Positions 13,939-60,190 of a stretch of DNA of 64,000 bases are shown one piece after another; position 1 is the stretch's first letter, and each line of letters begins with the position of its first letter. The DNA is taken from the NCBI GenBank assembly GCA_964619545.1, contig CAZUED010000003.1, positions 163-64,162 on the forward strand, given 5' to 3'. This DNA comes from an uncultured Muribaculaceae bacterium (GTDB taxonomy: Bacteria; Pseudomonadota; Alphaproteobacteria; Rs-D84). The notes beneath the pieces are model-generated. The model was not told the origin of the DNA. It saw only the letters and a program-made list of their open reading frames with translations, and did not search any database. The position numbers and the translations under genes were made by a program.

Positions 13939-14005
13939 ATTCTCTCTTGAAGCAAGTTTATCATAAAATGCGAGGAAATGCAAGCCTCCCTTTAACAAGT
14001 GGAAG

Positions 14006-45582: not shown

Positions 45583-46275
45583 GTGAGCGTCATGGATTTT
45601 CCGGCAGATTATGATACAAAGATGTTTCCGGAAACACGCTACCTTGGGATGGCGCGGGCTTTTGCGATTTGGTCCGCGATTTTGTTTTTATTAATTGCTG
45701 GACTTTCTTGGGCATTGGTTTGGACGATGCGTGCCAGCAGGGTAGAACCTGTTTTGGTTTCAATTTCTGCCGATGGTGCAACTTGGACGGCAGTATTGGA
45801 CGGAACAGGTCGCTTAAATTATTCTGTATCGCGCGCAATGCAAGAGGCAACAGTCGGAAAATTCACAAAACTTTGGTTCAGTATTTCGCGTGATGCAAAA
45901 GAAAATGAATCTAACTGGTGTCAATGCGAACAAACAAAATGTTGGGATGACGATGCGGCTGCGCCGCAGTGCAAAGTTTGTTGCGCTTCGGGCACCAGTT
46001 TATTTTCTAATTTCTTACAAGTTGTGAATGGTGACTTTCGTGAGCGGGCCGCGGCCGGCGAAGAATGGTCGATTGTTTCTGATTCGATTCGTGCAACACC
46101 TGTGGGTGAAATCTCTGACAATGGTGGATTATGGCGTGTTACTGCCAGTGTGAAAATGGGCGCGGGTCGGACGCAAAAGATAGAGGCGTTTGCACGTATC
46201 ATCAAAGCATCCGAAGGCTATCCATCAACAATGGGTTATTATGTCGCAGATTTTCATGCATATCCCGGGGAATAA
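45583..46275 (+). CDS. bitopic membrane protein with a Cys-cluster periplasmic domain (VirB8-like topology)
   Basis: Short cytoplasmic N-terminus, one TM (AFAIWSAILFLLIAGLSWALVW), a ~180-aa C-terminal domain and a CQCEQTKCWDD...CKVCC cluster. Confidence 0.5.
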   Translation: MSVMDFPADYDTKMFPETRYLGMARAFAIWSAILFLLIAGLSWALVWTMRASRVEPVLVSISADGATWTAVLDGTGRLNYSVSRAMQEATVGKFTKLWFSISRDAKENESNWCQCEQTKCWDDDAAAPQCKVCCASGTSLFSNFLQVVNGDFRERAAAGEEWSIVSDSIRATPVGEISDNGGLWRVTASVKMGAGRTQKIEAFARIIKASEGYPSTMGYYVADFHAYPGE

Positions 46276-46283
46276 AAAATTAA

Positions 46284-46934
46284 ATGAAAACACTAGTATC
46301 ATTTTTTTTCGGAATTATTTTGATGGCTTTGGTCTTGGCTATTGCACTAACGGGCGGCAAGTCATTTGATGCCAGTCGAAATTTTTCTATAAATTCTGTA
46401 ATTTTTCAGCCTGCGGATTTATCGCGAGATCGGATTGAAAAGCCAATACCACTGGATGTTTTATCAGACGAGTTTGTGCGCGACAGCCTGATAAAAAAAT
46501 TTGTGAACGAGTATTTTTACATAGCGCCAGATAGCTTTGATATGGCGCGTCGTAGAAGAACAGACAGCACACTTGCAAGAATGTCCGATCCCGCAGTATT
46601 TGATCAATGGAATGAAAAGTTTGCCGAAGATATGGAAAATCTGGCAGATCAAAATGTAATGCGTCGGGTTATTGTAAATAGCATTAATCTGCCAGCTAAC
46701 AGCGAGTATTTCCAAGTGTCATATGACTTGCTGACATGGGATGTTGCGAACGACATCACTCGTCAGCCATTAATCCAAAAAAACAAATCAATGTCTGTTC
46801 GATTGGATTTCGAAAAAGGGGTTCGGCAACAGCAAACAAACGGCGCACGTTTTGATGTAAAAAAATATTTGGTTGATGGTGGTGATCCTGCTACAATTTT
46901 CAGATTCCGAGTGTTGGAAGTAGTTGTGAAATAA
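46284..46934 (+). CDS. bitopic membrane protein (VirB8/DotI-like size and topology)
   Basis: N-terminal TM (LVSFFFGIILMALVLAIALTG) and a ~190-aa periplasmic domain; 216 aa. Confidence 0.5.
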   Translation: MKTLVSFFFGIILMALVLAIALTGGKSFDASRNFSINSVIFQPADLSRDRIEKPIPLDVLSDEFVRDSLIKKFVNEYFYIAPDSFDMARRRRTDSTLARMSDPAVFDQWNEKFAEDMENLADQNVMRRVIVNSINLPANSEYFQVSYDLLTWDVANDITRQPLIQKNKSMSVRLDFEKGVRQQQTNGARFDVKKYLVDGGDPATIFRFRVLEVVVK

Positions 46935-46944
46935 GGGATAAATA

Positions 46945-47805
46945 ATGATGGTTGAAGTAAAAATACTTTTTAGAAAATTAATTAAATCGCTGGTGATAAT
47001 TGGTGTTGCCTTCATCCTTAATCCCTCATCCTTCATCCTTTCTGCGCAAGCTGCGGAAGAGGCGGATCCATTCATAATAAATGCGGCGCTGGGCGAAGAT
47101 GCGAAATTGCCAGATGCAAAAATTTCCGCACCCGAGCCAGTTCAGTTTGATACAGCGCCATTACCACTTAATGATGGCGCAGGCTTTTATGATGTTTCTG
47201 ACTTTGACATTTCGGGCATATATTTGGGTATGCCTTTCGAGGATGTTCAAACTTTGTTTTTCAAAAGCCATTCTCTTTATACGCCACTGAAAAATAATTC
47301 TATAATTTATACATTGGCAGGTGATTGGCGTATTAATTTGGACTATGAATGTCGCCAGCAAGGTATAGTTGTTCCAGCTGGTTTGGAAAATTGCATTTTG
47401 TCTGCGGCGCGAAAACGCGGATTGTTGTACCCGGCCCAGCTTCGTCTGATACGTGAATCCACTGGTGAAACGATAGACATTTATTTTACTAGCAATGCTA
47501 CAGATAACGTGGTTTGGCGGGTAGTATATAAAAATGATGTAAATGATTTAGAAGGCGCGGCAGAAAAGTTTTCGCGTCAACGGGATAATAAAATTTTGTC
47601 TTTTTGGCAGGATGTTGTCGATAAATACGGCCAGCCAAACAGCGGAAATGATAAATGGGCATCCAGTGATAATTCTTTTGATCCGATGCTGACGGCATAC
47701 TATGGCATGCTGGATTTGACCGACCAAGGCTTGATGGCGTCTGATGCAGCAAAGAATGTATCCGATGCGCGTGAAAATTTCCGGGCAAAACCTTATGCGT
47801 TCTAA
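46945..47805 (+). CDS. hypothetical secreted protein
   Basis: Signal peptide ...VIIGVAFILNPSSFILSAQA; no motif. Confidence 0.5.
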   Translation: MMVEVKILFRKLIKSLVIIGVAFILNPSSFILSAQAAEEADPFIINAALGEDAKLPDAKISAPEPVQFDTAPLPLNDGAGFYDVSDFDISGIYLGMPFEDVQTLFFKSHSLYTPLKNNSIIYTLAGDWRINLDYECRQQGIVVPAGLENCILSAARKRGLLYPAQLRLIRESTGETIDIYFTSNATDNVVWRVVYKNDVNDLEGAAEKFSRQRDNKILSFWQDVVDKYGQPNSGNDKWASSDNSFDPMLTAYYGMLDLTDQGLMASDAAKNVSDARENFRAKPYAF

Positions 47806-48391: not shown

Positions 48392-48422
48392 TAAAACGCG
48401 GCGGTTGCCGCGTTTTATTTTA
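48392..48422. terminator. bidirectional rho-independent terminator
   Basis: aaaacgcggcggttgccgcgttttatttt. Confidence 0.75.
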
Positions 48423-48519
48423 TCACTGCTGATTTTATCAAGGATAAGTCTTCTTTAATTCCGTCTATTTTTAATTGCAGCTGACCAATACCCGATTCCA
48501 GAATTGTTGTTCTGTTTTC

Positions 48520-48745
48520 CAGCGTGGTTATGCGGGCATCAGATTTTTTATTTTTTCCATCTCTTCGTTTGACAGCATAGATTGCATATCAAATGCAGCT
48601 GCAATAAAAGATTGTTCTTGAATATCGTATGGGTTGGAAGTTTTTTTGTCAGCCAATTTCTTTTCAACAACTGCTATCAATTCTTTTTTATGTTTTTCAA
48701 ACATCCGAGTGGCATTTATAGATTCTGCAACTTTTTTTCAATCAT
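48520..48745 (-). pseudogene. small minus-strand ORF interrupted at an A7/T7 homopolymer
   Basis: MPLVLTDD then a stop at tgattgaaaaaaag. The downstream frame continues KKVAESINATRMFEKHKKELIAVVEKKLADKK...NLMPA, so a 1-nt indel would fuse them. Confidence 0.3.
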
Positions 48746-48819
48746 CTGTAAGCACTAATGGCATAATTCATCCTTTGTAGTACAGGTCAATTATACTTTT
48801 AAATAATGAGTTTTCAATA

Positions 48820-49656
48820 TTAAATCCTAAACTCGGTTTTTGCCTGGACGGGACGCAAAGTTTGACCAAGTGGACGAACCGGGGCTGCGTTCAGGTCCAG
48901 CGCCCCAGCAATCGCGTCCAGACCGTCATCGTGCCCCGAATCGCCCATCGGCGTCCAACCCAGCATTTCAGACAGCAATGGAGTCGCCTGAATTCTTTGG
49001 TGGGCCCAAATACGACCCGTCGTCAGTAGTGGCTCTACCGCGTTCAGAATCCGAGATTCCTTGCGCGTGTGATTTATGATTTTTTGGATAACAACAGATT
49101 GGTCGTGTTTTTTTGCGACTTCGCGCAAAATCTCGGGCAAGGCGTTTCCCAGCCCATTTACTTCTATCCCGATTATATGCGCGCCATGTATTTTCATAAA
49201 TCCCAAAACTTTCTCGCACTGAGTCGCCAGTGGATGCAAATCATTGTCATCCACAATCAAGTACCGAACATCATGAATAAATGCGCGCCGATTTTTATCG
49301 TCTCGGTAAAGCAAGACACATACACTGGAATCGGCCCCTTTACGCCCGCCTGATGGATCCCAATAGCACGATACGCCCGTTATCAAAAATTCTTTATCAA
49401 TTCCCAGTTTCGCTGTGCGAGCATCAAACTCTCCGTCATAAAAATAAAGCGCGCCTGGATCCAGCCGCGCTTTATCTTCCGAAATATATTCCAGCATCAT
49501 TTGACTGGAAAAATGACGTGGTCCGACCGTTTCCCTTAATTCTTCTATTTTTTCCAGTGGAAAAATATCTGGCCATGCAGGTATGCCGCCAGAATCAATT
49601 ATCGGTAGGCGGAATAATTGGTATCCGCGTAAAAATGGCAAGGTCTGTTCATTCAT
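48820..49656 (-). CDS. phage terminase large subunit, C-terminal nuclease domain fragment
   Basis: RNase-H-like terminase nuclease pattern VSCYWDPSGGRKGADSSVCVLLYRDD...IHDVRYLIVDD...HIIGIEVNGLGNALPEILRE. Only 278 aa and no ATPase domain. Confidence 0.65.
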   Translation of the reverse strand: MNEQTLPFLRGYQLFRLPIIDSGGIPAWPDIFPLEKIEELRETVGPRHFSSQMMLEYISEDKARLDPGALYFYDGEFDARTAKLGIDKEFLITGVSCYWDPSGGRKGADSSVCVLLYRDDKNRRAFIHDVRYLIVDDNDLHPLATQCEKVLGFMKIHGAHIIGIEVNGLGNALPEILREVAKKHDQSVVIQKIINHTRKESRILNAVEPLLTTGRIWAHQRIQATPLLSEMLGWTPMGDSGHDDGLDAIAGALDLNAAPVRPLGQTLRPVQAKTEFRI

Positions 49657-49726
49657 GGGAAAATAAAAAAAACGCGCTATGCGCGTCTGTTTGATGCCTC
49701 AATTATATCAAATTTTTCATAAAAAA

Positions 49727-51268
49727 TCAATCTAAAAATGGAACGTCAGCCATATCAGGCACTTCGGCATTACCATTGCTTGCGCTAGCAGGTGCAGAAT
49801 AAGATGGTTCTTCCGATTGATAACCTTCATCCAAATCATCAAACAAAGAATATTCCCCACTGAATTTCAGTTTAATCGTTTCTGGTTTTCCATGACGATT
49901 TTTACCGATAATCAATTCGGCCTTACCGCGTGATGCGTCCAGACGCTTGCGCCAATTGTCTGCCTTGTTGGTTGTAAATTTTTCGGAATGGTCACCGACA
50001 ACATCAGATGGATCGCGACCCTGCAAGTAATACTCTTCACGATAAGTGAACATAACAATGTCGGCATCTTGTTCAATAGACCCAGATTCGCGCAAGTCCG
50101 ACAGCAATGGTCGTTTGTCATCGCGTGATTCGACTGCGCGGGAAAGCTGAGACAGCGCGATAACCGGCGCATCCAATTCCTTGGCCAACATTTTCAGACC
50201 CCGGGTGATTTCTGATAATTCATTAACACGGCTGTCGTTTTTACGAAGAGTTGGTGACTGCATCAACTGCAAATAATCGATAACGATAAGTGCAATACCG
50301 CCATGCTTACGGGCAATACGGCGTGCGCGTGCGCGCATCATAGGGACACTCATCCCCGGGGTATCATCAACCAGCAAAGGAACATTAGATAGTGCATCAG
50401 AATACTGCGACATCCGCAGAAACTCTTGATCATTCAGGCTGCCGTTACGCATAGAACTGGATGGAATTTTCGCCTGGGACGACAGAACGCGAGCCGCCAG
50501 TTGAGATGCTGACATTTCAAGGCTGAAAAACACGACCGCGCCACGATACTTTTTATTTGCGCGATTTGCCATAATTGCGCTGGCCGCGTTAAAGGCAATA
50601 TTCATCGCAACCGTGGTCTTTCCCATAGCAGGACGACCAGCAATTATTACCAAATCAGACTTGTGCAATCCGCTGATAGATTTATCCAAATCACGCAGAC
50701 CTGTGGTCAGACCCGATAATTTTCCATCGGCCTTATAAGCAATTTCGGCTTCTTCTAATGCAACGCGAAGTGCCGCCCCCAGTGGAGATGCCCCGCGGTC
50801 GGACGATCCGGTGGTGGATAAATCAAACAGTTTTTGTTCGGCTATTTCTATTTGTCTGTCTACCGGATTGTCTAAATCTTCGACAAATGCCGAATCGGTA
50901 ATGTTTTGACCTATATTAATCAGGTGACGCCGCAAAGCATTATCATAAACTATTTTGGCATAGCTTTCTATATTTACAACAGATGCGCCGGCACTCGCCA
51001 GTTCTGACAAATACTCGACCCCGCCGACAGAATCAAGAACACCTTGTTGTGTCAGATAGTTTTTTGCCGTAATGATGTCAAATGGGATTCCGGCGGCGAA
51101 TTGCTTTTCGGCAAGTTTAAAAATCTCTTGGTGGGCGGGATGAGTAAAATGTTCAGAGTGTAAAAAATCGCTGACTTTTTCCAGTGCGCGGTTGTTCATC
51201 AAGACTGCTGCCAGCACGGCTTGCTCAGCTTCCAAATTAGTCGGTAAAGACTTGGGAGTAAAATCCAT
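49727..51268 (-). CDS. dnaB: replicative DNA helicase DnaB
   Basis: N-terminal DnaB domain (EAEQAVLAAVLMNNRALEKV); Walker A GRPAMGKTTVAMN; RecA-like core; acidic C-terminal tail. Confidence 0.9.
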   Translation of the reverse strand: MDFTPKSLPTNLEAEQAVLAAVLMNNRALEKVSDFLHSEHFTHPAHQEIFKLAEKQFAAGIPFDIITAKNYLTQQGVLDSVGGVEYLSELASAGASVVNIESYAKIVYDNALRRHLINIGQNITDSAFVEDLDNPVDRQIEIAEQKLFDLSTTGSSDRGASPLGAALRVALEEAEIAYKADGKLSGLTTGLRDLDKSISGLHKSDLVIIAGRPAMGKTTVAMNIAFNAASAIMANRANKKYRGAVVFFSLEMSASQLAARVLSSQAKIPSSSMRNGSLNDQEFLRMSQYSDALSNVPLLVDDTPGMSVPMMRARARRIARKHGGIALIVIDYLQLMQSPTLRKNDSRVNELSEITRGLKMLAKELDAPVIALSQLSRAVESRDDKRPLLSDLRESGSIEQDADIVMFTYREEYYLQGRDPSDVVGDHSEKFTTNKADNWRKRLDASRGKAELIIGKNRHGKPETIKLKFSGEYSLFDDLDEGYQSEEPSYSAPASASNGNAEVPDMADVPFLD

Positions 51269-51371
51269 GTCTCAAACCATACAACACGAATTTTAATTTG
51301 CAATGATTTTTCTTGCTTTGTTATAAAAAAAAAACTACTCTGTTTGTCAATAAGAACAAGAGGATTCAGTC

Positions 51372-52388
51372 ATGGCATGGGAAGAAATCTGTTTTCCAAA
51401 TAACCTTAGAAATATAAGGTTGTCGCGCGGAATGCGTATGACCGAAGTCGCCAAAAAATCCGGCCTTTCGCTGTCAGCAATGTCCAAGGTTGAAAAGGGG
51501 GTGCGCCGGTTAAAACAAAGTCAACTGATGCAGCTTTGCACAATTCTGGACTGCAAGTTGGCCGACATCTTTATAAAGGCTGACGATGAAAAGGCTACCA
51601 AATGGCAATCTGAAATGCAACGTCGCTTGACTGAAAATGAAACCGCTGGTTTGAAGGTATTTGGTGCGGGGATACGGGTTTTACGCCGTGAAGTTGGTAA
51701 GACTATCGCCCAGGCGGCCCATGATGCTAAGATGACGCTAAGCGTATATCACAAGATAGAAACTGGCCAGCGAGAGGTTTATGAAAACGAAATAGAAAAT
51801 TTGGCAAAGGCAATGGGTAAATCGATTGATGAAATGTTCAAGGCAATCGCAGGACTTTATAATTCTGGTGCGCTGAACAGACAAATCGACAAGGCCGAAG
51901 AACGTGTTCGCGAAGCGCTGAAAGTTGGTAAGTCCGAATCTAATTTAGATATGGGCAGCGCGATTTATGGCGCAACGGTTTATGATTCTGTGCGGAAAAA
52001 TTTGGTTCCGGTATATGGAACCGCGAATGGAAAAAATATAGTATTTATGAAATCTGATGACAATATGCTGCCACCATTGCCAAAGATAAAAAGCGGCAGT
52101 GGGATATATGCTGTTCAGGCACCTGCTGGTCGGTTGGGACCGCTGTTTCCGCACAAATCACATTTGCTTGCAAATCCTGGTATAATGCCTGTGGCTGGTG
52201 ATTTAGCGGTTTTGTTTGATGATGATTACGAAAATATCGAGCCTCGTACCCAGGCGACCGCACGGATTGTCATGCTGAAAGAGGATAAAAATGGCACGCT
52301 AATCGGTGTTCAGTCTTATCCAGAAGAGAAAATACAGATAAAGAACGGCAAAAAGCGACTGCATAAAATTGTGCAGATTGTCTGTTAA
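51372..52388 (+). CDS. XRE-family transcriptional regulator with two HTH domains and a LexA/CI-like S24 peptidase C-terminus
   Basis: Two HTH_XRE blocks (LRNIRLSRGMRMTEVAKKSGLSLSAMSKVEKG; LRREVGKTIAQAAHDAKMTLSVYHKIETG). The C-terminal region FMKSDDNMLP...AGDLAVLFDD...IVMLKEDKNGTLIGV resembles the LexA Ser/Lys autoprotease fold. Confidence 0.6.
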   Translation: MAWEEICFPNNLRNIRLSRGMRMTEVAKKSGLSLSAMSKVEKGVRRLKQSQLMQLCTILDCKLADIFIKADDEKATKWQSEMQRRLTENETAGLKVFGAGIRVLRREVGKTIAQAAHDAKMTLSVYHKIETGQREVYENEIENLAKAMGKSIDEMFKAIAGLYNSGALNRQIDKAEERVREALKVGKSESNLDMGSAIYGATVYDSVRKNLVPVYGTANGKNIVFMKSDDNMLPPLPKIKSGSGIYAVQAPAGRLGPLFPHKSHLLANPGIMPVAGDLAVLFDDDYENIEPRTQATARIVMLKEDKNGTLIGVQSYPEEKIQIKNGKKRLHKIVQIVC

Positions 52389-52411
52389 TAATTTGTAAAA
52401 TAGAGAGAGAA

Positions 52412-53047
52412 ATGAGAGAACTGACTTCCATAATAGCGCAGCGCTTGTTGAACTTGTATCGCCAGGCTCATGTGATTGATGGCGGCTGGGCAGCTGTTAA
52501 TAAGGCATTGTTGGCCGAGGCAGATAATGAAGTTCTGGCCGATTTGCAAAAATTGCCGAACGGGGGAAAGTTGGTTCAGCATATAAAAAATTTGCAATCT
52601 GGAAAAACGGAAGTCAGCGGAATAGAACGCGAAGTTATACCATATGGTGGTAAGATGGACAGCGCGGTAAAGGCAACGCAAATTTCCAACAAGGATTTGA
52701 AAGAGTTAGAATCTGCGCTGGCAGAATTTCAATCAGACGAAGAACATATTGAAAAAATTAAAAATTTATCATTTGTTCAATCTTTTGGTGAAAAGTGGAT
52801 TTCCGGGGTTCGGTCATCATTATCTGGCAAGCCAGAGTTAGAGAAAAAATGGCTTGAAGTTTCCAGATCCGCACGGGCATATGATTTATGGAATAAAGCC
52901 TATGCCGTTTTAATTCCGCCAGTTTCGGACAGAGCACGTGCCGAGATTCAGGCAGAATTATCTGAATATGAAACTTATCTGCCGATGTTTGGCGAAGACG
53001 GAACGCAACTTTTATCGCGACTCCGCTCATTTGTAAGCAGTTTGTAA
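52412..53047 (+). CDS. hypothetical protein
   Basis: 211-aa ORF with no motif; followed by terminator aaaaaaacgcggtggttccccgcgtttttt. Confidence 0.45.
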   Translation: MRELTSIIAQRLLNLYRQAHVIDGGWAAVNKALLAEADNEVLADLQKLPNGGKLVQHIKNLQSGKTEVSGIEREVIPYGGKMDSAVKATQISNKDLKELESALAEFQSDEEHIEKIKNLSFVQSFGEKWISGVRSSLSGKPELEKKWLEVSRSARAYDLWNKAYAVLIPPVSDRARAEIQAELSEYETYLPMFGEDGTQLLSRLRSFVSSL

Positions 53048-53074
53048 AAAAAACGCGGTGGTTCCCCGCGTTTT

Positions 53075-53731
53075 TTAATTTTCAACCTTATAAATTGTGT
53101 CAACTGCATGTGGTGTGCCGATATAAATCATGGTGCCGCTAGGGGAAAGAATAAAGTCCAGTTCCCGCAGACGCATGCGTAACATTTCTCGTTTTTGAGA
53201 AGTATTGCTGGTGTTGGGAACTTCCACGTCATCGCAGATAATCATATCGGCGCGCTGACCTGTTATATTTCCATGAATACCTTGGCAGACTACAGAAGGT
53301 TCCCGAATTCCAACTTGGCGCGAGATTGTAATTTTATGCATTCCCCATTCTTTTTTAACGTTTGGCAATAAATCTCGGCATTCTGGATGATTTTCCAGAA
53401 TATGTTTTATATGTGACACCATTCTTGATGCCAGATTGGATTCTGCAGAAAGAATAAGTATACGTGTTTGTGGTCTTATAGAAAGTACCCATGCGGCGAA
53501 AATGCCAACAACTGATGATTTTCCTGAATGTCTAAATGCCAATAAAAGCGCCCGACGGGGCGGATTTTCAAGGCTGTTTACCAGAAATCTCAAAATGTTT
53601 TTATGATGTGTTGGTGTTTCCATTCCCAGTATCTGGTTCCATGCATCTAAAAAATTTTTCGCGGATTCATAAAGTTCCATAATCATCAATACTTTCACTG
53701 GGGCCTGTATCTGCCGGGGTTCCATAATCAT
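53075..53731 (-). CDS. phage terminase large subunit, N-terminal ATPase domain fragment
   Basis: Walker A-like RHSGKSSVVG; Walker B/catalytic ADMIICDDVE; coupling motif IYIGTPH. Only 218 aa and no nuclease domain. Confidence 0.65.
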   Translation of the reverse strand: MIMEPRQIQAPVKVLMIMELYESAKNFLDAWNQILGMETPTHHKNILRFLVNSLENPPRRALLLAFRHSGKSSVVGIFAAWVLSIRPQTRILILSAESNLASRMVSHIKHILENHPECRDLLPNVKKEWGMHKITISRQVGIREPSVVCQGIHGNITGQRADMIICDDVEVPNTSNTSQKREMLRMRLRELDFILSPSGTMIYIGTPHAVDTIYKVEN

Positions 53732-54215
53732 TTATCATTCGCGGCATGGCAGTACTCAGCACTGATAAAAGATTATTATAAAGCCCCAGTGCAGCGCCTC
53801 CACCAGTTTTATCTTCTATTAATTCTTTAATGACATCCATCTGATGCACGACATTGTCATGAATATTTTGCCACTGGGCAATACTGATTTCAACTGAGTT
53901 TAAATCTCGGAAAGCCTCTAGTATAAAATTAAAATCTGCGTTCAGGTTTTCGGGATCAATTTTTGCAGCTGGCTGATAATCGATAAAGCGGGATAGACTT
54001 ATCTTGCGAAATATATCTATACGAGAATTTTGCACGGGTGGATTTGCAAAAGAAATTATTCCACCAATCATATTCTCATCATATTGCAAATTATATTCAG
54101 TAGAATCCAAAATAACTTCATTGATTGCCACATGAACGTCTAATGGCTGAAAAAAAGGAAAAGCAAAGGCAAAGCAATATGCTTCGCCGTCACCGACATA
54201 AGAAATCTTGTACAT
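53667..54215 (-). CDS. T7 gp17-like tail-fibre N-terminal (tail-attachment) domain only
   Basis: KISYVGDGEAYCFAFAFPF...VHVAINEV...YNLQYDE...ISLSRFIDYQPAAKI...LNADFNFILEAFRD parallels T7 gp17 residues ~10-150 (YQLDGSNRDFNIPFEY...VVVTLIG...DYRF...LRRVTSTTDRLVDFTDGSIL...LNVAQIQTMHVAEEARD). No distal fibre. Confidence 0.5.
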   Translation of the reverse strand: MYKISYVGDGEAYCFAFAFPFFQPLDVHVAINEVILDSTEYNLQYDENMIGGIISFANPPVQNSRIDIFRKISLSRFIDYQPAAKIDPENLNADFNFILEAFRDLNSVEISIAQWQNIHDNVVHQMDVIKELIEDKTGGGAALGLYNNLLSVLSTAMPRMINDYGTPADTGPSESIDDYGTL

Positions 54216-54232
54216 TTTATAACCTTTGTTTG

Positions 54233-54580
54233 TCAGGCAATCAATCCATCCAGTCTGGAAATGAATGATTTCAACAGATTGGATTTTGGTGTTTTTATTT
54301 TATAAAGCTTGTCCAGATTGGATTTCTTTTTTTCATCAAATGGTTCTTCGGTTTCTTCACGCAGTCTTTTCAGAACAGCCTCTTCGGTCATTCCTTTATT
54401 TGTCATTCCTGCGCTGCCGTATTTTGCACGTTGTGCGGCTAATGTTTTTTTTACCAGATTGATTTTTGCTTTTTCATCCGCCGCAATTTTTTCTAAAATT
54501 CTTTTTCGTTCTGACACGTTTTCTTTTTTGTCTTGTTTTTGATTTAAGATGTCTGTGACATCTGATACAAGTTGTCCCAT
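54233..54580 (-). CDS. hypothetical Lys/Glu-rich protein in the phage module
   Basis: 115-aa charged ORF; no motif. Confidence 0.4.
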   Translation of the reverse strand: MGQLVSDVTDILNQKQDKKENVSERKRILEKIAADEKAKINLVKKTLAAQRAKYGSAGMTNKGMTEEAVLKRLREETEEPFDEKKKSNLDKLYKIKTPKSNLLKSFISRLDGLIA

Positions 54581-54590
54581 TTTTTTCTCC

Positions 54591-56315
54591 TTAGATTAAA
54601 TACCAGCCTTCTACTGATATGCCCAGTATGCTTACAGGTAATGGTTCGCTACCCGATATAGTCCAAAGAGGACAGGTAGTATCGTCAATTGTTCCCAATG
54701 AACCTACAGAAACATCTCCGCAGTATCCAGGCGAGTCTACACCAAGTGCATCATTTGGAAGTTGTGCACGAACTGCATTTATAAATAAAGATTTGGTATT
54801 CAGGCATCGTGCGGAAATTTTATGCACTCGAATTTTTTTCGGAGCTCGTCCACTGGCGAATAAAGGCATCGCAGCAGCCGTATGTGAAAATCCGAATTGA
54901 CCAGAATCAAGAGTTTCTGCTGCTGAAAATTTTTCTATGAATACGCCTGATTCGCGCGCGACTATTACAAATGTTTCACCATTCAGCACAGCGACAGATT
55001 TGAATGATCCCAGTGTTTTGTAGATGCCCCAGGCAGAAATTTCCAATGCCGAGTTTTTATTCAGTACTGCCATGGAACCATCTGTCATCACCACAAACAA
55101 CTGGCGTGTTTTATCATTATATGCCAGATCCACGGGATGCTTCATCAAGTGACCGGAAATCGCGCACAAGTTTGGTGCATTGTAGTTTTCACCTAACTCA
55201 TCCATAATCATTTCTCTGATTTCGTTGCCACCTTTGGAAACAAAAATAGTGCTGCGGTCTATCTTTTGTGGCTGCAGATAAATCGAAGAAATACTTCCTG
55301 CATTGGTATGTTGTCTGATGTCCATGGATGATGGAGTTAATGGTTTTGCGCTGATTGCCCATTCGCCTGCTGTGGTTAAAATTTGTAAATTATCGCTGGA
55401 TACAACCGTGCAAATTTGTTGGCGTGCAGATGAAAGCAGTGTCAGAAAAATGGCTTGGTCATCCAATCCTGTTTCAGCATTAAAGTTTTGATGATCACCA
55501 ACGCATGACATCCAAACCCCACATGGCCACGCGCGCGAACCCCCAAATACCAATCGGTCCTGATGAAAAGTGATGCTGCGTGGCCATCCGCGGCGGACAC
55601 CAAATGCGGCTTCGCGCCAATCAGAAATTGCCGCACTGGGCAGCGAGTAAGTTCCATTAGTGTATGCAACGATAGTGGTAGAATTTACATACTCGTAAAT
55701 GACCCATTGCTTACCCATCAAGTAAAGTCTGCCATTGAGATTTTCAGGTGTCCAAAAAGCGGCACTGGCAGTAAAAGTAGCATAGTTATTCCCATTCGCA
55801 TTACTTGATACAGAAATTTTTATACCAGCTGCATCGTCAAATTTCATAAATGGCATATTTCGTGACATATCATCGTTTGTTGAAAAATCAAATGTGGACA
55901 GATAAAACGCGCCACCTGTTTTTTTCAGAACTCGTGGCTGAAAATCCTGATGCACGAAAATCATGGTATCAAAACGTTGCGCATATTGCATGTTACACAA
56001 TGCATCCGCGCCCCAAGGCGAGATCAAGGCCTGGACCATATTCTGACCATCATAAATTTTCATCTGACCATCAGAAATAGCCAGCATATAATTTTCTGAA
56101 TCGGAAATAGAAAAAGGAATCAAAATTGCACCATTTTTTGTCGCAGCAATCCGAATTGTTCCATTCCGCCGTGAAATAGCCCCCGATGCCAAGACATCCA
56201 TATTTTCCATACGCGACAAGCCGCGGGATGAAACATCCAAATCACCACGCGCAAAAAATTCTGGCGATACTTCCCCCAATGCGAAAGAGTTCTGATTGTG
56301 AATAAATTTTCCCAT
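54591..56315 (-). CDS. T7 gp12-like tail tubular protein B (nozzle), shorter than T7 gp12
   Basis: N-terminus MGKFIHNQNSFALGEVSPEFFARGDLDVSSRGLSRMENM parallels T7 gp12 MALISQSIKNLKGGISQQPDILRYPDQGSRQVNGWSSETEGL. Position immediately after the gp11-like gene. Confidence 0.5.
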   Translation of the reverse strand: MGKFIHNQNSFALGEVSPEFFARGDLDVSSRGLSRMENMDVLASGAISRRNGTIRIAATKNGAILIPFSISDSENYMLAISDGQMKIYDGQNMVQALISPWGADALCNMQYAQRFDTMIFVHQDFQPRVLKKTGGAFYLSTFDFSTNDDMSRNMPFMKFDDAAGIKISVSSNANGNNYATFTASAAFWTPENLNGRLYLMGKQWVIYEYVNSTTIVAYTNGTYSLPSAAISDWREAAFGVRRGWPRSITFHQDRLVFGGSRAWPCGVWMSCVGDHQNFNAETGLDDQAIFLTLLSSARQQICTVVSSDNLQILTTAGEWAISAKPLTPSSMDIRQHTNAGSISSIYLQPQKIDRSTIFVSKGGNEIREMIMDELGENYNAPNLCAISGHLMKHPVDLAYNDKTRQLFVVMTDGSMAVLNKNSALEISAWGIYKTLGSFKSVAVLNGETFVIVARESGVFIEKFSAAETLDSGQFGFSHTAAAMPLFASGRAPKKIRVHKISARCLNTKSLFINAVRAQLPNDALGVDSPGYCGDVSVGSLGTIDDTTCPLWTISGSEPLPVSILGISVEGWYLI

Positions 56316-56842
56316 TAGAACCTCGTTGATATAAGTGAAAAGTCAGGTATGTCATTGCTGGGTGACACAGTGCTGTCTATGAATTTTGCCGCGCGCAGCT
56401 CGGATTCAAACAATGCTGCAATGGTGCGTAATAAATTCTGGTCGCCGGTCAATGGCATACAGAATTCCCGTGCAAGTTGCAATGCAGCGACATTTGAAAA
56501 ATATGAAGGATAATTTTCTGGTCCCATTCGCACAACAGCAGTGATTGAAATTTTATCGGCCGGTGCAGAAATTCTGTTCCCGCTAGTTTGATAAAGCAAG
56601 CAATCACAATCCAAAACACGAAGAATTTCTACTGGCAAAAGAAAATCACCATCTGTGGTCTTGCTTAAATTGAATTTTTTCTGGGCAAATTTCCACGGAT
56701 GCGACGCCAGCAAAGAATCAATCGTAGTATCAAATAGGGTCTTTGCGACTTTGGCTGCAGCACTATCGTCGTTAAAAGACTGAATGGGATTTTCACCAAT
56801 TTTCAATAAAGCAATAGAACACAGATCAATTTTAGTAAGCAT
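56315..56842 (-). CDS. T7 gp11-like tail tubular protein A (gatekeeper/adaptor)
   Basis: DLCSIALLKIGENPIQSFNDDSAAAKVAKTLFDTTIDSLLASHPWKFA parallels T7 gp11 [50 protein letters not shown]. Confidence 0.6.
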   Translation of the reverse strand: MLTKIDLCSIALLKIGENPIQSFNDDSAAAKVAKTLFDTTIDSLLASHPWKFAQKKFNLSKTTDGDFLLPVEILRVLDCDCLLYQTSGNRISAPADKISITAVVRMGPENYPSYFSNVAALQLAREFCMPLTGDQNLLRTIAALFESELRAAKFIDSTVSPSNDIPDFSLISTRF

Positions 56843-56865
56843 GGGGAACTCCTGACTTTTAACTT

Positions 56866-57150
56866 TTATGCCAAAGCACTGGTTGTTACATTCTGGGATG
56901 TGATGTTAATTTTTTTGATTACGGTGTTGTCGGAAGCATTGATAATTACAATGTCGCCAATATTCATCAAAGTGCGGACCGGATTAAAAAAACCAGTAGT
57001 ACTGATGGTCGCAATACTTTCTTGGGCGGCATAGTGCCACAGAGTAAATCCATTTGCATACGCAATAACGGACAAGTTTTTGTTTTGGAAATACATGAAA
57101 AACTCCATTGTTTGAGGGATGAAGGAGGAAGTTTGAGGTAAAAAAATCAA
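56866..57150 (-). CDS. hypothetical small protein between the capsid and tail-tube genes
   Basis: 94-aa ORF; no motif. Confidence 0.35.
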   Translation of the reverse strand: MIFLPQTSSFIPQTMEFFMYFQNKNLSVIAYANGFTLWHYAAQESIATISTTGFFNPVRTLMNIGDIVIINASDNTVIKKINITSQNVTTSALA

Positions 57151-57188
57151 TAAAACTAAAACCTAATCCTTCATCCCTCATTCTTTAA

Positions 57189-58004
57189 TTATTCGGCGCA
57201 ATTGATTTTGACGATCCCGTCCTGATCAATCAGCACGCTGCCCTGGGACATGCTGTTGCTGATAAAGTGCGCAGCGCGTTCGCCATTCCAAAAGATGTCA
57301 GATTTGACTTCTTGGCCACATGCATGACCGATAGCGGACGAGTGATACATAAAGCACTTACGCATATTGGTACCGGTTGGCAGGCCGTTATGCATAATCC
57401 AATTGATGCCCAACCACTTACGCAGTTCGAATCCACCAATCAAAGGTGTTTCGTTGCCGACGTATTCAGCCGAAACGAATTCATCCATAGACAAAAGCTC
57501 ATTCCACTGATGAACACCGACGACGCAGAATCTGCGACCATCGTCAGGAACGTCTTTAGAGTTCAATGCTTCGACCGCGGACAAAATAATTTCTTTGGTC
57601 AAAGCGGCAGTTCCATCTCCGACAGCGGTTGTTGCATTGGCCATAGATGTTATAATCAGCTCGTCAGTCTTGCGACCCAATGCATATGCACCTGCGCTTG
57701 CGACAACCCGACGTTCATCAATGTTGATTTTTAATTCATCCAAAGCATCAACCCAATCGCCCGCATAATAGTCCTGCAATACGCATTCAACAGGCTCGTG
57801 GTCCAAGTTCATGACAGGAACTAATCCGTGGCGAGATTTGGTAGTGGCAGTACCACGACCAACTTTTTGGAAAGTTGTACTGCTGCCTATAACGCCGGAT
57901 TTACTGCGTATTGTGTTGCGAAGCTTTGTCCCCATTTGTTGATAAGCAAGATGAACATCGGCCTCGAATTGTTTTACGAATATCTGGTCTATTGATTCAG
58001 ACAT
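57189..58004 (-). CDS. T7 gp10-like major capsid protein, short form
   Basis: FVKQFEADVHLAYQQ...FQKVGRGTA parallels T7 gp10 FLKVFGGEVLTAFAR...FPVLGRTQA. RKCFMYHSSAIGHA parallels IGLFMHRSAVGTV. Position after the scaffold-like gene. Confidence 0.55.
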   Translation of the reverse strand: MSESIDQIFVKQFEADVHLAYQQMGTKLRNTIRSKSGVIGSSTTFQKVGRGTATTKSRHGLVPVMNLDHEPVECVLQDYYAGDWVDALDELKINIDERRVVASAGAYALGRKTDELIITSMANATTAVGDGTAALTKEIILSAVEALNSKDVPDDGRRFCVVGVHQWNELLSMDEFVSAEYVGNETPLIGGFELRKWLGINWIMHNGLPTGTNMRKCFMYHSSAIGHACGQEVKSDIFWNGERAAHFISNSMSQGSVLIDQDGIVKINCAE

Positions 58005-58311
58005 AGTTTCTCCTTTTTGATTGAAAAAAACCGGACATTATTGTCCGGTCATAAATAATTTGTTTTTCAGGTTCCGCGCAAAAGCGCGCCGTAAAAACAA
58101 ATATGCGGGTTCGTCAGAATTGTATGTCTTTTTCTGATGCTATGTTTTGCCTTATTATATACCAATTGTCCTTAAATCCGTTTTAGTGGTAGTTGCGAGA
58201 AAACAGCACATTACAGCACTTCATAGGTTGTAATGGGGCATTTTAGCACTAGAAAAGCGGTAATAAAAAATCCCGCTTTGCGGGATTTTTTATTTCAATA
58301 ATGTAATTACA

Positions 58312-58764
58312 TTATTTCTTTTTAGCAACTGGCTTTTTCGCCGGGGCTTTCTTAGCAACAGGCTTTTTAGCAGCTGGTTTTTTCGCAGCTGGCTTTTTCG
58401 CCGGGGCTTTCTTAGCGACAGGCTTTTTGGCAACCGGCTTTTTAACCGCAACTTTCTTAGCAGCAGGTTTTTTAGCAGCAGGTTTTTTAGCAGCAGGTTT
58501 CTTTGCCATTGGCTTTTTAGCAACAGGTGCTTTTACTGCCAATTTCATAACTTTTTTTGCAGCTGGTTTTTTTGCTGGAGCTTTCTTAGCAACAGGCTTT
58601 TTAGCGGCAACTTTTTTTACAGCTGGTTTTTTTGCAACTGCTTTTTTCACAGCTGGTTTTTTAGCAGCAGGTTTTTTAGCAGCTGGTTTTTTTACAACGG
58701 GCTTTTTAGCAGCTGGTTTTGCAGTTGCTTTCTTTGCCGCTGGTTTCAAGAATGAAAATGCCAT
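58312..58764 (-). CDS. histone H1-like Lys/Ala/Pro-repeat DNA-binding protein (AKKPAAKK repeats)
   Basis: About 20 tandem KKPAAKK-type repeats across the whole protein, with a tandem DNA repeat underneath. Strong terminator downstream at ~58266-58292. Confidence 0.65.
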   Translation of the reverse strand: MAFSFLKPAAKKATAKPAAKKPVVKKPAAKKPAAKKPAVKKAVAKKPAVKKVAAKKPVAKKAPAKKPAAKKVMKLAVKAPVAKKPMAKKPAAKKPAAKKPAAKKVAVKKPVAKKPVAKKAPAKKPAAKKPAAKKPVAKKAPAKKPVAKKK

Positions 58765-58876
58765 TCTCTTCTCCTTCCTTTTTTTGTTTTTATAGAACAA
58801 AAAATTTTTGTTCTTGATTACATTTTATCTGAAACAAAAAAATTAGTAAAGCGAAAAGAAAAAAATTACATAAAAT

Positions 58877-59530
58877 TTATGAATATAATTTTTTGAAACC
58901 AGTTTCTATTTTACGAATATATTCTGAATCATGATCACGCCAATATTTTGGATCTTTCATCATGTTGCGTAATTCATTATCAGATAGTTTTTCTGATGCA
59001 TGATTTCCAGTTGCAACATCTGGTTCCATTGATTGCATCATTTTATAAATGCTTTGGATTCCCTGGGGTGTAGAGCACAATGACTCAAATGCATCAGATG
59101 GTAAAAACTTTTCACCGAATGCATTGATAGCCTGCATGGCATCTTTCATCTTTTCTTCGCTACCGAAAAAATTTTGTAATGTGGCGATTGATTCTGACTG
59201 GGCGCGCAAAGAGAAAATTTCTGACAATGCTGGGGATAAAAATTCTTCAGCTATCGAATAAATTTTTTCAACTTGCTTTGGAGTCAATCCTGCATCAAAA
59301 AATTTTTTGCGAATCGTTTCATCATCAAACATCGGATTTGATGGATATTCGTCAGCAGTCTTTGGAACCCCCAATGTGCGCATAAATTTTTCACGTGAAT
59401 TTTCGTCGGCATCTTCGCCTGGGATGGATACCATGGTCCCGATTTTCTTTTCCAGTTCGGAATAAGACTTAATCAAAGCATCGCTGTTTAATGTTCCATC
59501 ATCGTTTTGGAATTTTTCTGGAATTTGCAT
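58877..59530 (-). CDS. T7 gp9-like capsid scaffolding protein
   Basis: Acidic helical protein. C-terminus NELRNMMKDPKYWRDHDSEYIRKIETGF parallels the T7 gp9 C-terminus EMIKAMSDPRYRTDANYRRQVEQKV. Confidence 0.55.
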   Translation of the reverse strand: MQIPEKFQNDDGTLNSDALIKSYSELEKKIGTMVSIPGEDADENSREKFMRTLGVPKTADEYPSNPMFDDETIRKKFFDAGLTPKQVEKIYSIAEEFLSPALSEIFSLRAQSESIATLQNFFGSEEKMKDAMQAINAFGEKFLPSDAFESLCSTPQGIQSIYKMMQSMEPDVATGNHASEKLSDNELRNMMKDPKYWRDHDSEYIRKIETGFKKLYS

Positions 59531-59720
59531 TCTTTCCCCTTTGAGTTGATTTGCGTAAGAAATATATCCCCGCAAGAGTAAAAATTGAATTCATAGTCGT
59601 AAAAACATTTTCATCACCAACAAGATATGCCGTGATTGCGGATAAAATTCCAACGCCGGAAATTATGTAAGTCCGTTGTCCTGCAAAGAATCCGCCACTT
59701 AAAATTTTTGACATTCGCAT
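59499..59720 (-). CDS. small membrane protein, candidate holin
   Basis: 73 aa; two hydrophobic segments (GGFFAGQRTYIISGVGILSAITAYLV; IFTLAGIYFL) and a basic C-terminus. Immediately downstream of the lysin gene. Confidence 0.4.
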   Translation of the reverse strand: MRMSKILSGGFFAGQRTYIISGVGILSAITAYLVGDENVFTTMNSIFTLAGIYFLRKSTQRGKNANSRKIPKR

Positions 59721-59737
59721 AAAAAACTCCGTTCAGG

Positions 59738-60190
59738 TTATTTATAGAAAAGCAGCCCATCAATATCTGCAATACTTCCTTTATCTGTTGCCCAATCTGG
59801 CAAAATGTCTTCGCGATGAAATCGAACTGCGCTACGAACAGAATCAGGCAGTTTCCCATTAATCATTCTTTTTAAGACACGCAAACACATTTGGAATTTT
59901 GGGTCATCTTCGGAAATTAAAAGATCGCTGTGGCGGGAAGATTCTTTTTGCAAACATTCAAATAAAGATTCGTCCGCTGCAATACAAGAAAAAGGCTGCA
60001 TAGATTGTTGATAAATATTTCCAATCATAGACGCCATGGCTTCAACCGCTGGCAAACTTGACGTGCGCGTTTCGGCATAAATAATTTTTCCCAGTTGGAC
60101 AAGTATTGTTTTTTCATCCTGAAACTCATTACGAGGCATTGTTTGCATTCGGACTTCCTTTGTATAAGAAAGACCCGCGCAGCAATGCAC
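59738..60190 (-). CDS. SleB/CwlJ-family cell-wall hydrolase (phage-type lysin)
   Basis: LGKIIYAETRTSSLPAVEAMASMIGNI matches the Hydrolase_2 (SleB) signature. Confidence 0.55.
   Translation of the reverse strand: MHCCAGLSYTKEVRMQTMPRNEFQDEKTILVQLGKIIYAETRTSSLPAVEAMASMIGNIYQQSMQPFSCIAADESLFECLQKESSRHSDLLISEDDPKFQMCLRVLKRMINGKLPDSVRSAVRFHREDILPDWATDKGSIADIDGLLFYK

Follow-up and report, generated by a model that had tools for sequence, protein, structure and literature searches.

A phage-type large terminase gene split by a host dnaB operon in a conserved podovirus-type structural gene cluster of gut Alphaproteobacteria

The locus analysed here belongs to gut alphaproteobacteria of the order Rs-D84 (Ca. 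Enterousia and relatives), whose genomes are smaller than 1 Mb. The window, a stretch of 64,000 nucleotides, carries between the host genes lipB and yraN a cluster of about 11–12 kb comprising structural, lysis, and packaging genes, and the same two host genes border the cluster in about 65 related genomes. The upstream structural block (53667–60190) was recognised by Pfam and PHROG matches, and its order is kept in about 65 loci. It includes, all on the minus strand, genes for a hydrolase (59738–60190, followed in the gene list by p74), a T7-type scaffold (58877–59575), a K/A-rich protein (58312–58800), the major capsid protein (MCP, 57189–58004, Phage_capsid_2, followed by p94), tubular protein A (56315–56842), tubular protein B (54591–56315, followed by p115), and the fibre-like p182 (53667–54215). 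The MCP shares 46% identity with the capsid protein of Pelagibacter phage EXVC031P. The order conserved across the loci is lipB-hydrolase-scaffold-MCP-p94-tubA-tubB-p115-p182-TerN / p211-HTH-dnaB / TerC-portal-Bbp19-p78-yraN. The cluster yielded no recognisable small terminase, no internal core proteins, and no clear candidate for a receptor-binding protein, and Pfam and PHROG annotation revealed no integrase, polymerase, or primase there.

Downstream of this block, the five ORFs listed in the preliminary description are all present at the coordinates and on the strands given there, and two of them encode parts of a large terminase (TerL). TerL-N (53075–53731, minus strand, 218 aa) is the N-terminal piece of a T7-type TerL, with Walker A (SGKS), Walker B (ICDDVE), and the coupling motif GTPH. 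TerL-C (48820–49656, minus strand, 278 aa) contains the end of the ATPase domain (residues 1 to about 95, comprising a strand and the lid) and continues into an RNase-H-like nuclease that bears the motifs WDPS, EVNG, and DDGLDA; all catalytic motifs are intact. In PHROG 38 ('terminase large subunit'), TerL-N matched positions 270–458 (E 1e-40) and TerL-C positions 481–710 (E 5e-39). Against the NCBIfam model NF033889 (termin_lrg_T7, cut-off 150 bits), TerL-N passed with 226 bits (model positions 3–189), TerL-C alone scored 97.7 bits, below the cut-off, with an alignment reaching model position 500, and an in silico fusion of the two scored 328 bits, its residues 25–283 aligning with model positions 3–275 unbroken over the junction. 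In unsplit relatives of 481–505 aa, residues 27–214 of TerL-N correspond to positions 9–196 and residues 3–275 of TerL-C to positions 205–487. TerL-N also aligned with residues 11–211 of T7 gp19 (8dgc_E), and TerL-C matched PF22530 with 32.3 bits (cut-off 27). The combined 218 + 278 aa make up a normal TerL length.

TerL-N and TerL-C are thus exactly complementary pieces of one T7-type TerL, without loss or duplication; the preliminary description had proposed this, and alignment to full-length terminases bears it out. Its designation of the pieces as 'ATPase' and 'nuclease' halves needs correction: the break lies about 10–11 residues past GTPH, in a variable loop within the ATPase domain and not at the ATPase/nuclease hinge, and therefore the last ~90 residues of the ATPase domain reside in TerL-C together with the nuclease. 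In TerL-N taken alone, the ATPase fold is missing its final strand and its lid. Since the TerL-N ORF overlaps p182 by 65 nt, translation may in fact begin at an internal ATG. Both halves possess start and stop codons of their own, the stop of TerL-N and the ATG of TerL-C, with a Shine-Dalgarno-like GGAG, being conserved; the single polypeptide described by termin_lrg_T7 is encoded as two ORFs 3.4 kb apart here and in all relatives within the clade. No group I or group II intron was detected at the break, the Rfam search of the window returning only tRNAs and 5S rRNA, and a domain search found no intein/Hint or other extra domain at this position.

The segment between the halves contains three genes. 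The first, dnaB (49727–51268, minus strand), encodes a replicative DNA helicase with the domains DnaB and DnaB_C and is the only dnaB copy within the 64-kb window. Its product scored 607 bits against the alphaproteobacterial replicative-helicase equivalog NF006606 (cut-off 540) and 501 bits against TIGR00665 (cut-off 385), while with 411 bits it fell short of the cut-off of the phage_DnaB model (498.65); by these profile scores, the DnaB of the locus is host-type and not phage-type. The second gene (51372–52388, plus strand) encodes a regulator that combines two XRE-type HTH domains with a C-terminal domain of the lambda-CI/LexA (S24) fold, for which no Pfam Peptidase_S24 match was obtained. 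The Ser/Lys dyad is not conserved in this domain: the Ser site is occupied by S, T, A, or V (Ala in the window) and the Lys site by K or R, according to a mapping of residues by eye that deserves moderate confidence. RecA-stimulated self-cleavage of the regulator is therefore unlikely. The third gene, p211 (52412–53047, plus strand), is real and conserved; it codes for an all-helical protein of 211 aa and closes the nested operon. The regulator and p211 are confined to this clade.

Terminator-like hairpins of bidirectional type were found at both junctions, as the preliminary description had noted. One, read directly, lies between the convergent stops of TerL-N and p211 (53048–53074, AAAAAAAACGCGG..CCGCGTTTTTT); similar hairpins occur at this junction in basal relatives, and in most Enterousia loci the two stop codons overlap by 4 nt. 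At the dnaB/TerL-C junction (49670–49730, minus strand), a promoter-like TTGATT-17-TATAAT (49730–49702) is followed by the other hairpin (49688–49670), located 13 nt ahead of the TerL-C ATG. The spacer of 70 nt between these genes is specific to the window's subclade, the corresponding distance in relatives being -2 to +25 nt. The promoter-like element of dnaB itself (51276–51303, minus strand; TTGCAA-16 nt-TATGGT) lies 7 nt upstream of the dnaB ATG, which implies a leaderless or nearly leaderless mRNA. The geometry TTGAAA/TTGAAT-16-TAnnnT-7-ATG recurs in 44 of 62 relatives, where the element falls inside TerL-C codons 1–15 and synonymous variation is near zero; normalised codon entropy is 0.00–0.06 over TerL-C codons 1–20 versus a gene mean of 0.76. 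The dnaB and TerL-C starts overlap as CATG, with TerL-C open in frame, at 59 of 62 loci. In most species, the nested operon lies antisense to the terminase and is fitted into it to the nucleotide, by the 4-nt stop overlap, the CATG start overlap, and the promoter-like element within TerL-C. No conserved TerL-C promoter was detected inside dnaB, where synonymous variation is flat. Neither direct repeats nor target-site duplications flank the insert, and Pfam/PHROG annotation revealed no recombinase in or beside it.

The split at the same residue, with the same three intervening genes, was found in about 65 related gut alphaproteobacterial genomes, all loci long enough to judge having the identical break and the identical genes within it. 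Stand-alone TerL-N homologs of about 200 aa with 70–92% identity occur in hundreds of clusters, and in the species-level genome collection TerL-N turned up in 267 stretches; the homologs are all 185–224 aa long and end at a common position. In about 60 species, the portal gene lies directly behind TerL-C; the termite and cockroach gut lineages L009, L011, L012, L029, and L042 have TerL-N without TerL-C or portal within 4–10 kb. The dN/dS values relative to the closest relative were 0.069 for TerL-N, 0.105 for TerL-C, 0.066 for MCP, 0.052 for dnaB, and 0.16 for yraN, within a range of 0.04–0.19 across the genes compared. Judged by these ratios, both terminase halves are under strong purifying selection, and throughout the clade their conservation matches that of housekeeping genes. 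The cluster genes co-diverge with host genes: Spearman's rho between cluster genes and dnaB was 0.63–0.77, equal to that between lipB and dnaB (0.635); the MCP is better conserved than DnaB. Altogether, the cluster in the window is a head-and-short-tail gene set of phage origin, inherited vertically and equipped with a T7/pelagiphage-like structural module, and its TerL gene was split long ago by the host operon of dnaB, the two-HTH regulator, and p211. The split layout is an old fixed feature of the whole bacterial group and not recent damage. The genomes of the host clade are below 1 Mb, are not decaying, and show no pseudogene accumulation (PMC12306168), and the retention of about 12 kb of phage genes in such genomes argues for a function.

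The lineage of the window has undergone changes of its own. In the window, dnaB is on the same strand as the terminase, while in most relatives it is antisense; its orientation differs between lineages, and at one locus (L008) dnaB lies outside the cluster, adjoining a host peptidase gene. The inversion in the window's lineage involved dnaB with its promoter, not the whole operon, and gave rise to a new N-terminus of TerL-C (MNEQTLPFL) and the new 70-nt leader. A deletion scar (48418–48809, minus strand) contains 255 nt without a homolog (48555–48809) in place of about 3.3 kb. In the closest relative, the corresponding segment holds the portal gene, a lysin-like gene of 395 aa, an ORF of 176 aa, Bbp19, and the 5' part of p78; of p78, only the final 46 codons remain in the window (48418–48554), and Logan contig SRR8925824 has the same deleted arrangement. 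Compared with the closest relative, TerL-C and the dnaB 3' end show unusual divergence, and the structural ORFs of the window other than the deleted ones are all full length. The machine of the window strain is probably incomplete, unless a portal gene is located elsewhere in its genome.

The nearest unsplit terminases are only 45–53% identical and belong to clusters with the order portal-Bbp19-scaffold-MCP-tubA-tubB-TerL-hydrolase. T7-like and HTVC010P-type podophages have the same TerL motifs in the same order and homologous capsid, scaffold, tubular A/B, portal, and Bbp19 proteins. Unlike in these phages, TerL is here encoded by two ORFs 3.4 kb apart, portal and Bbp19 follow TerL and the hydrolase precedes it, replication, transcription, internal-core, and integration genes are missing, and the cluster has become a fixed part of the host chromosome, diverging along with it. 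With gene transfer agents (GTAs) in general, it shares the small chromosomal phage-derived gene set without replication or integration functions, vertical inheritance, and purifying selection. Alphaproteobacterial GTAs (RcGTA-like, BaGTA) likewise have a structural cluster below phage size that is interleaved with host genes. As in the present cluster, growth-essential genes and a link to a replication function are found at the BaGTA loci (PMC6899734). In contrast to both RcGTA and BaGTA, a housekeeping dnaB operon is nested here in a split terminase. The ancestry is podoviral (T7-like), while that of RcGTA is an HK97-type siphovirus cluster; an RcGTA-like element (Rhodogtaviriformidae, HK97-type, with g1–g15 homologs) is ruled out by the T7-like tubular A/B, scaffold, Phage_capsid_2, and TerL.

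Single-chain phage enzymes split by inserted DNA are known from T4 topoisomerase genes 39/60 and the split nrd genes of T4-like phages. In those cases, two polypeptides reassemble, as would be the case here, although the inserts are mobile endonuclease genes or short sequences in phage genomes, and not, as here, a chromosomal operon that the bacterial host needs to live. An interrupted terminase also exists in herpesviruses, where the boundary between exons I and II of HSV-1 UL15 lies between Walker A and B, while the break described here is past motif III and encloses housekeeping genes of the host. UL15 consists of two exons around a 3.5-kb intron with opposite-strand genes, an interruption of similar length and content that is conserved through a viral order (PMC3079670). 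Spliceosomal splicing yields one protein there, whereas the Rs-D84 locus has no intron signature and each half is a complete ORF; the two splits are clearly independent. No description of a split terminase with a nested dnaB was found in the literature searched.

The preliminary description regarded the cluster as a domesticated phage remnant, which the data support, and the split as a sign of disruption or decay that leaves the module unable to package. On the latter account, the terminase was recently broken by insertion or rearrangement, its halves survive as mere pseudogene remnants, and the particle module is defunct. The deletion of portal, Bbp19, and the 5' part of p78 and the divergence of TerL-C and the dnaB 3' end agree with it, while the intact catalytic motifs, the full-length remaining structural ORFs, the dN/dS of 0.07–0.10 for the halves, and a host clade without pseudogene accumulation (PMC12306168) do not. 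No target-site duplications or repeats were found at the junctions, and related strains, proposed as a comparison, show the same split in every genome examined, so that a naturally two-gene terminase, the observation set against disruption from the outset, is what the hundreds of TerL-N homologs present. As the source of the split itself, recent disruption is refuted, and overall we consider this account very improbable. Decay could apply to this one strain if its genome has no portal gene elsewhere; what survives of the non-packaging claim is that the strain may be defective through its deletion, not owing to the split. Another suggestion was that DnaB belongs to a phage-derived replication module. 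DnaB-like helicases and CI-like repressors are common in temperate phages, the regulator is of CI/LexA architecture, and both it and p211 are confined to the clade, so that dnaB-HTH-p211 might be the replication/immunity module of the old phage, its DnaB having replaced the host helicase. However, the DnaB exceeds the cut-off of NF006606 and not that of phage_DnaB, none of 86 related unsplit terminase loci has dnaB or the two-HTH regulator within 10 kb, and in L008 dnaB lies beside a host gene, which makes such an origin improbable.

Less easily dismissed, though still unlikely, is a separate exaptation of the halves, in which TerL-N and TerL-C no longer act together as a packaging motor but have taken on other tasks for the host, the capsid and tail genes producing DNA-free particles or something else. 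The lineages having TerL-N without TerL-C or portal nearby, the lack of an identified small terminase, and the retention of both intact halves in the window strain after loss of the portal favour it; the incomplete ATPase fold of TerL-N alone, the position of the portal behind TerL-C in about 60 species, and the co-divergence of the two halves with the capsid speak against it. A gene rejoined on demand, by programmed DNA excision or inversion, RNA splicing, or protein trans-splicing, would give one TerL in particle-producing cells. Developmentally excised elements exist in bacteria and provide an analogue, and the orientation of dnaB varies between lineages. UL15 is a formal parallel (PMC3079670). 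But the junctions have no repeats, Pfam/PHROG annotation shows no recombinase in or beside the insert, Rfam indicates no group I/II intron, two pieces adding up to a normal TerL leave neither room nor a domain for a split intein, TerL-N has a conserved stop of its own and TerL-C a conserved ATG with the GGAG, and excision would remove an essential gene; rejoining is the least credible of these accounts, with hardly any probability.

We consider it reasonably probable that the locus is a domesticated, GTA-like podovirus-type particle cluster with a two-polypeptide terminase, its function being deduced from the genes. In such a system, TerL-N and TerL-C would reassemble non-covalently into a working ATPase-nuclease packaging motor, and the cluster would make GTA-like particles instead of infectious phage. 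Transcription into TerL-C and portal would run head-on through the dnaB promoter, and expression of the helicase and of the packaging genes would therefore interfere mutually. A bolder version, possible but doubtful at present, is that all Rs-D84 gut symbionts carry an unrecognised podovirus-type GTA whose motor is a heteromer of TerL fragments and whose late genes are interlocked with the dnaB promoter, so that particle production requires or causes dnaB shut-down.

Genes are seldom interlocked in the way seen here, where an essential host operon is nested to the nucleotide in a phage gene, starts overlap, and a promoter-like element lies in coding sequence; a regulatory coupling of replication and packaging thereby becomes directly testable. 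If a TerL made of two polypeptides and broken within its ATPase fold does work, nature has carried out a split-protein experiment on a molecular motor that has been studied in depth. If the T7-like cluster is indeed a domesticated particle system across an order of bacteria with genomes below 1 Mb, it would extend the short list of GTAs by a new lineage and suggest a route of DNA exchange among obligate gut symbionts; and if particle production is tied to dnaB shut-down, these bacteria would possess a hard-wired switch from replicating the chromosome to terminal packaging of DNA and vice versa.

All five ORFs named in the preliminary description of this locus were recovered at the same coordinates and on the same strands: the N-terminal piece of the large terminase, TerL-N (53075–53731, minus strand, 218 aa); p211 (52412–53047, plus strand, 211 aa); a CI/LexA-like regulator with two HTH domains (51372–52388, plus strand, 338 aa); dnaB (49727–51268, minus strand, 513 aa); and the C-terminal piece, TerL-C (48820–49656, minus strand, 278 aa). 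The window is chromosomal DNA, with 5S rRNA, tRNAs, rpoB/rpoC-sized ORFs, and BamA. A podovirus structural module lies upstream of TerL-N on the same strand and comprises genes for a cell-wall hydrolase, a T7-type scaffold, a lysine/alanine-rich protein, a Phage_capsid_2 major capsid protein (MCP), and tubular proteins A and B (tubA, tubB), as well as two small ORFs; it is flanked by lipB and a pyruvate phosphate dikinase gene on one side and by yraN (UPF0102) on the other. The lysine/alanine-rich ORF (58312–58800, minus strand, 162 aa), which separates the scaffold gene from the capsid gene, has a match to the low-complexity, histone-H1-like model HC2 and could encode a DNA-condensing or internal protein, or else be a compositional artefact. 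Between BamA and yraN, three ORFs of 230, 216, and 286 aa follow in succession (45583–47805, plus strand) and are syntenic in many relatives; the one tested gave no family matches.

TerL-N and TerL-C are exactly complementary pieces of one T7-type terminase, as the approximate complementarity noted earlier had indicated. TerL-N matches positions 270–458 and TerL-C positions 481–710 of PHROG 38, and on the NCBIfam model termin_lrg_T7 TerL-N covers positions 3–189 while TerL-C reaches position 500. BLASTP and MAFFT comparisons with four unsplit relatives of 481–505 aa placed TerL-N residues 27–214 on positions 9–196 and TerL-C residues 3–275 on positions 205–487; when the two pieces were fused in silico, the HMM alignment crossed the junction as a single stretch. 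TerL-N residues 15–215 align with T7 gp19 (PDB 8dgc), and a PDB sequence search using TerL-C alone gave no match. The pieces had been described as ATPase and nuclease halves, a division that has to be revised. The break lies about 10 residues past the coupling motif GTPH, in a stretch of variable length among unsplit relatives, and TerL-C starts with a conserved PFL..L.IP strand followed by the W.E.F...SQMMLE helix region. Since about 90 residues separate these elements from the first nuclease motif (WDP) downstream, the split is inside the ATPase domain rather than between ATPase and nuclease; TerL-N by itself is an incomplete fold. An Rfam gathering scan of the window for an intron yielded only three tRNAs and the 5S rRNA, and no intein signature was present at the terminase break. 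As for the repeats or target-site duplications envisaged at the junctions, nothing beyond chance matches was detected.

The preliminary description considered that DnaB might be part of a phage-derived replication module and that the terminase had been disrupted, leaving a non-packaging particle module, domesticated or decaying. The protein itself speaks against a phage origin of DnaB, scoring above the cut-off of the alphaproteobacterial replicative-helicase equivalog and below that of the phage DnaB model, as does the absence of dnaB, the HTH regulator, and p211 from all 86 loci with related unsplit terminases. The expected catalytic Ser and Lys positions of the regulator are not conserved, with Ala at the Ser position in the window, suggesting that it is CI-like in architecture and probably not self-cleaving. 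The p211 protein is helical and restricted to the clade, with no informative structural neighbour.

The split itself, in turn, is not damage; it recurs throughout the clade. More than 800 TerL-N homologs were found, and the best 120 of these are all 185–224 aa long, 69–100% identical, and share the same end point; beyond them, a library clustered at 50% identity yielded unsplit terminases as the next relatives, about 450–510 aa long and 45–53% identical. Scanning one genome per species revealed 267 matching stretches, nearly all in MAGs from animal, termite, or cockroach guts and labelled Ca. Enterousia, Alphaproteobacteria, or Rickettsiales; one sits on a closed chromosome of 958,618 bp. Enterousia, a member of the order Rs-D84, has genomes of less than 1 Mb with normal coding density and no pseudogene accumulation (PMC12306168). 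Comparison of the locus among relatives, proposed earlier as a check, showed that about 65 of 84 loci onto which the window proteins were mapped keep the split and the three intervening genes in one common layout: lipB, hydrolase, scaffold, MCP, p94, tubA, tubB, p115, p182, and TerL-N on the left; p211, HTH, and dnaB in the middle; and TerL-C, portal, Bbp19, p78, and then yraN on the right (p with a number denotes an ORF by its protein length). In comparison with the closest relative, which is 86% identical in nucleotide sequence, dN/dS was 0.052 for dnaB, 0.066 for MCP, 0.069 for TerL-N, 0.105 for TerL-C, and 0.16 for yraN, values indicating purifying selection. For the cluster genes, pairwise protein distances track those of dnaB (rho of 0.63–0.77) as closely as do the distances of the host gene lipB (0.635), and conservation is higher in the capsid protein than in DnaB. 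Therefore, considering the order-wide conservation of the layout, the dN/dS values, and the co-divergence, the cluster and its split have been transmitted vertically and maintained by selection.

The terminase is also interlocked with the dnaB operon at the nucleotide level. In the majority arrangement, dnaB, HTH, and p211 form an operon antisense to the terminase. A 4-nt overlap joins the stop codons of TerL-N and p211 in 36 of 62 loci, and in most others they are only a few nucleotides apart; at the other end, the dnaB ATG and an open, in-frame ATG of TerL-C overlap as CATG in 59 of 62. Unsplit terminases lack an equivalent of the first 13–20 TerL-C codons, whose synonymous variation is about zero (normalised codon entropy of 0.00–0.06 versus 0.76 for the gene). 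On the opposite strand of this start, TTGAAA or TTGAAT is followed by 16 nt, TAnnnT, 7 nt, and the ATG of dnaB, a spacing shared exactly by 44 of 62 loci and by two subfamilies of diverged sequence. This element is a putative dnaB promoter inside TerL-C codons, and the dnaB mRNA would be leaderless or almost so. A GGAG/GGGG Shine–Dalgarno-like element for TerL-C sits in dnaB codons 4–5; no conserved element or TerL-C promoter was detected in the dnaB 5' coding region, where synonymous variation shows no dip. Transcripts entering TerL-C and portal would have to meet the dnaB promoter head-on, a layout in which expression of dnaB and of TerL-C/portal could interfere mutually.

Related clusters with intact TerL have the order portal, Bbp19, scaffold, MCP, p94, tubA, tubB, fibre-like gene, TerL, and hydrolase. 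The closest cultured-phage capsid is that of a pelagiphage with the same head–tail order, whose terminase is of a different type and uninformative on the break. Several rearrangements are therefore required to reach the Rs-D84 layout: portal and Bbp19 would have been relocated behind TerL and the hydrolase to the front of the cluster, the middle and early genes lost, and the dnaB operon inserted into TerL. No repeats or recombinase marking the route were found. In some termite and cockroach gut lineages (L008; L009, L011, L012, L029, L042), TerL-N has been separated from dnaB or from the entire right half (dnaB, TerL-C, portal), yet persists as an intact ORF of about 200 aa; the region recorded for this displacement of dnaB is 101–1720 of L008.

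The closest unsplit terminases also have ordinary host genes as neighbours: the L087 TerL is the last gene of a capsid–tube cluster beside topA and argG, and the L089 TerL stands alone among host genes. In L091, the scaffold and capsid genes are separated by an inserted metallo-beta-lactamase-fold gene. Further domesticated T7-like clusters may exist in other bacteria. Some Enterousia genomes encode, just past yraN, a 158-aa protein with an Mtd_N domain (about 20314–20630 in L001–L003; 17637–18113 in L002); the Mtd_N family includes the receptor-binding protein of Bordetella phage BPP-1, which diversity-generating retroelements target. Either assembly errors or pseudogenes at the strain level account for two irregular genes: dnaB of L004, called as two ORFs of 337 and 157 aa (12447–13997), and the regulator of L045 (11323–12330), interrupted by an in-frame stop. 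The TerL-N locus occurs on two contigs, L045 and L072, binned in the same MAG (JAFTTY01), which suggests that the bin mixes strains or that the locus is duplicated. The MAG records L005, L006, L008, L014, and L055, which contain this alphaproteobacterial locus, are titled 'uncultured Muribaculaceae bacterium', and a 5-kb 'Bacteriophage sp.' record from human faeces (MT838907.1) encodes a capsid 64% identical to that of the window; all are probably mislabelled Rs-D84 chromosomal DNA.

In the window and three relatives (L004–L006), dnaB alone has been inverted and is co-directional with the terminase. The promoter-like element moved along with dnaB (now 51276–51303, TTGCAA-16-TATGGT-7-ATG), and TerL-C acquired a new N-terminus, MNEQTLPFL, and a 70-nt leader containing both a promoter-like site and a terminator-like hairpin. 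A bidirectional hairpin is located between TerL-N and p211 in the window, as in basal lineages. Portal, Bbp19, a lysin-like gene, a small ORF, and the 5' portion of p78, together about 3.3 kb in the closest relative, L005, are missing from the window, which has 255 nt of homolog-free sequence in their place (scar region 48418–48809). The same deletion junction is present in an independent assembly of a public run, and no portal gene was found anywhere within the 64-kb window; the strain is probably portal-deficient. A 58-aa ORF (48528–48704) spans the scar. From the dnaB 3' end through TerL-C (about 49100–50000), nucleotide identity between the window and L005 is 0.75–0.81, down from about 0.87, which suggests a recombination tract adjoining the deletion; the TerL-C protein is 80.6% identical to that of L005, versus about 92% for neighbouring genes.

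The nearest formal analogue of the split TerL is herpesvirus UL15, which is split at a different place from the Rs-D84 terminase. The UL15 TerL gene has two exons, with opposite-strand genes in the 3.5-kb intron between them (PMC3079670). UL15 is spliced, whereas the Rs-D84 TerL has no intron signature and consists of two complete ORFs. A literature search on split terminases, on phages or GTAs of Enterousia, and on T7-like GTAs found nothing relevant, and we know of no GTA in which the terminase is split or a housekeeping operon is nested. In function the Rs-D84 cluster would resemble alphaproteobacterial GTAs, although it is not RcGTA-like in ancestry. On wholly computational evidence, we propose that TerL-N and TerL-C associate, completing the ATPase, and that together they would act as the packaging motor of a domesticated GTA-like particle.
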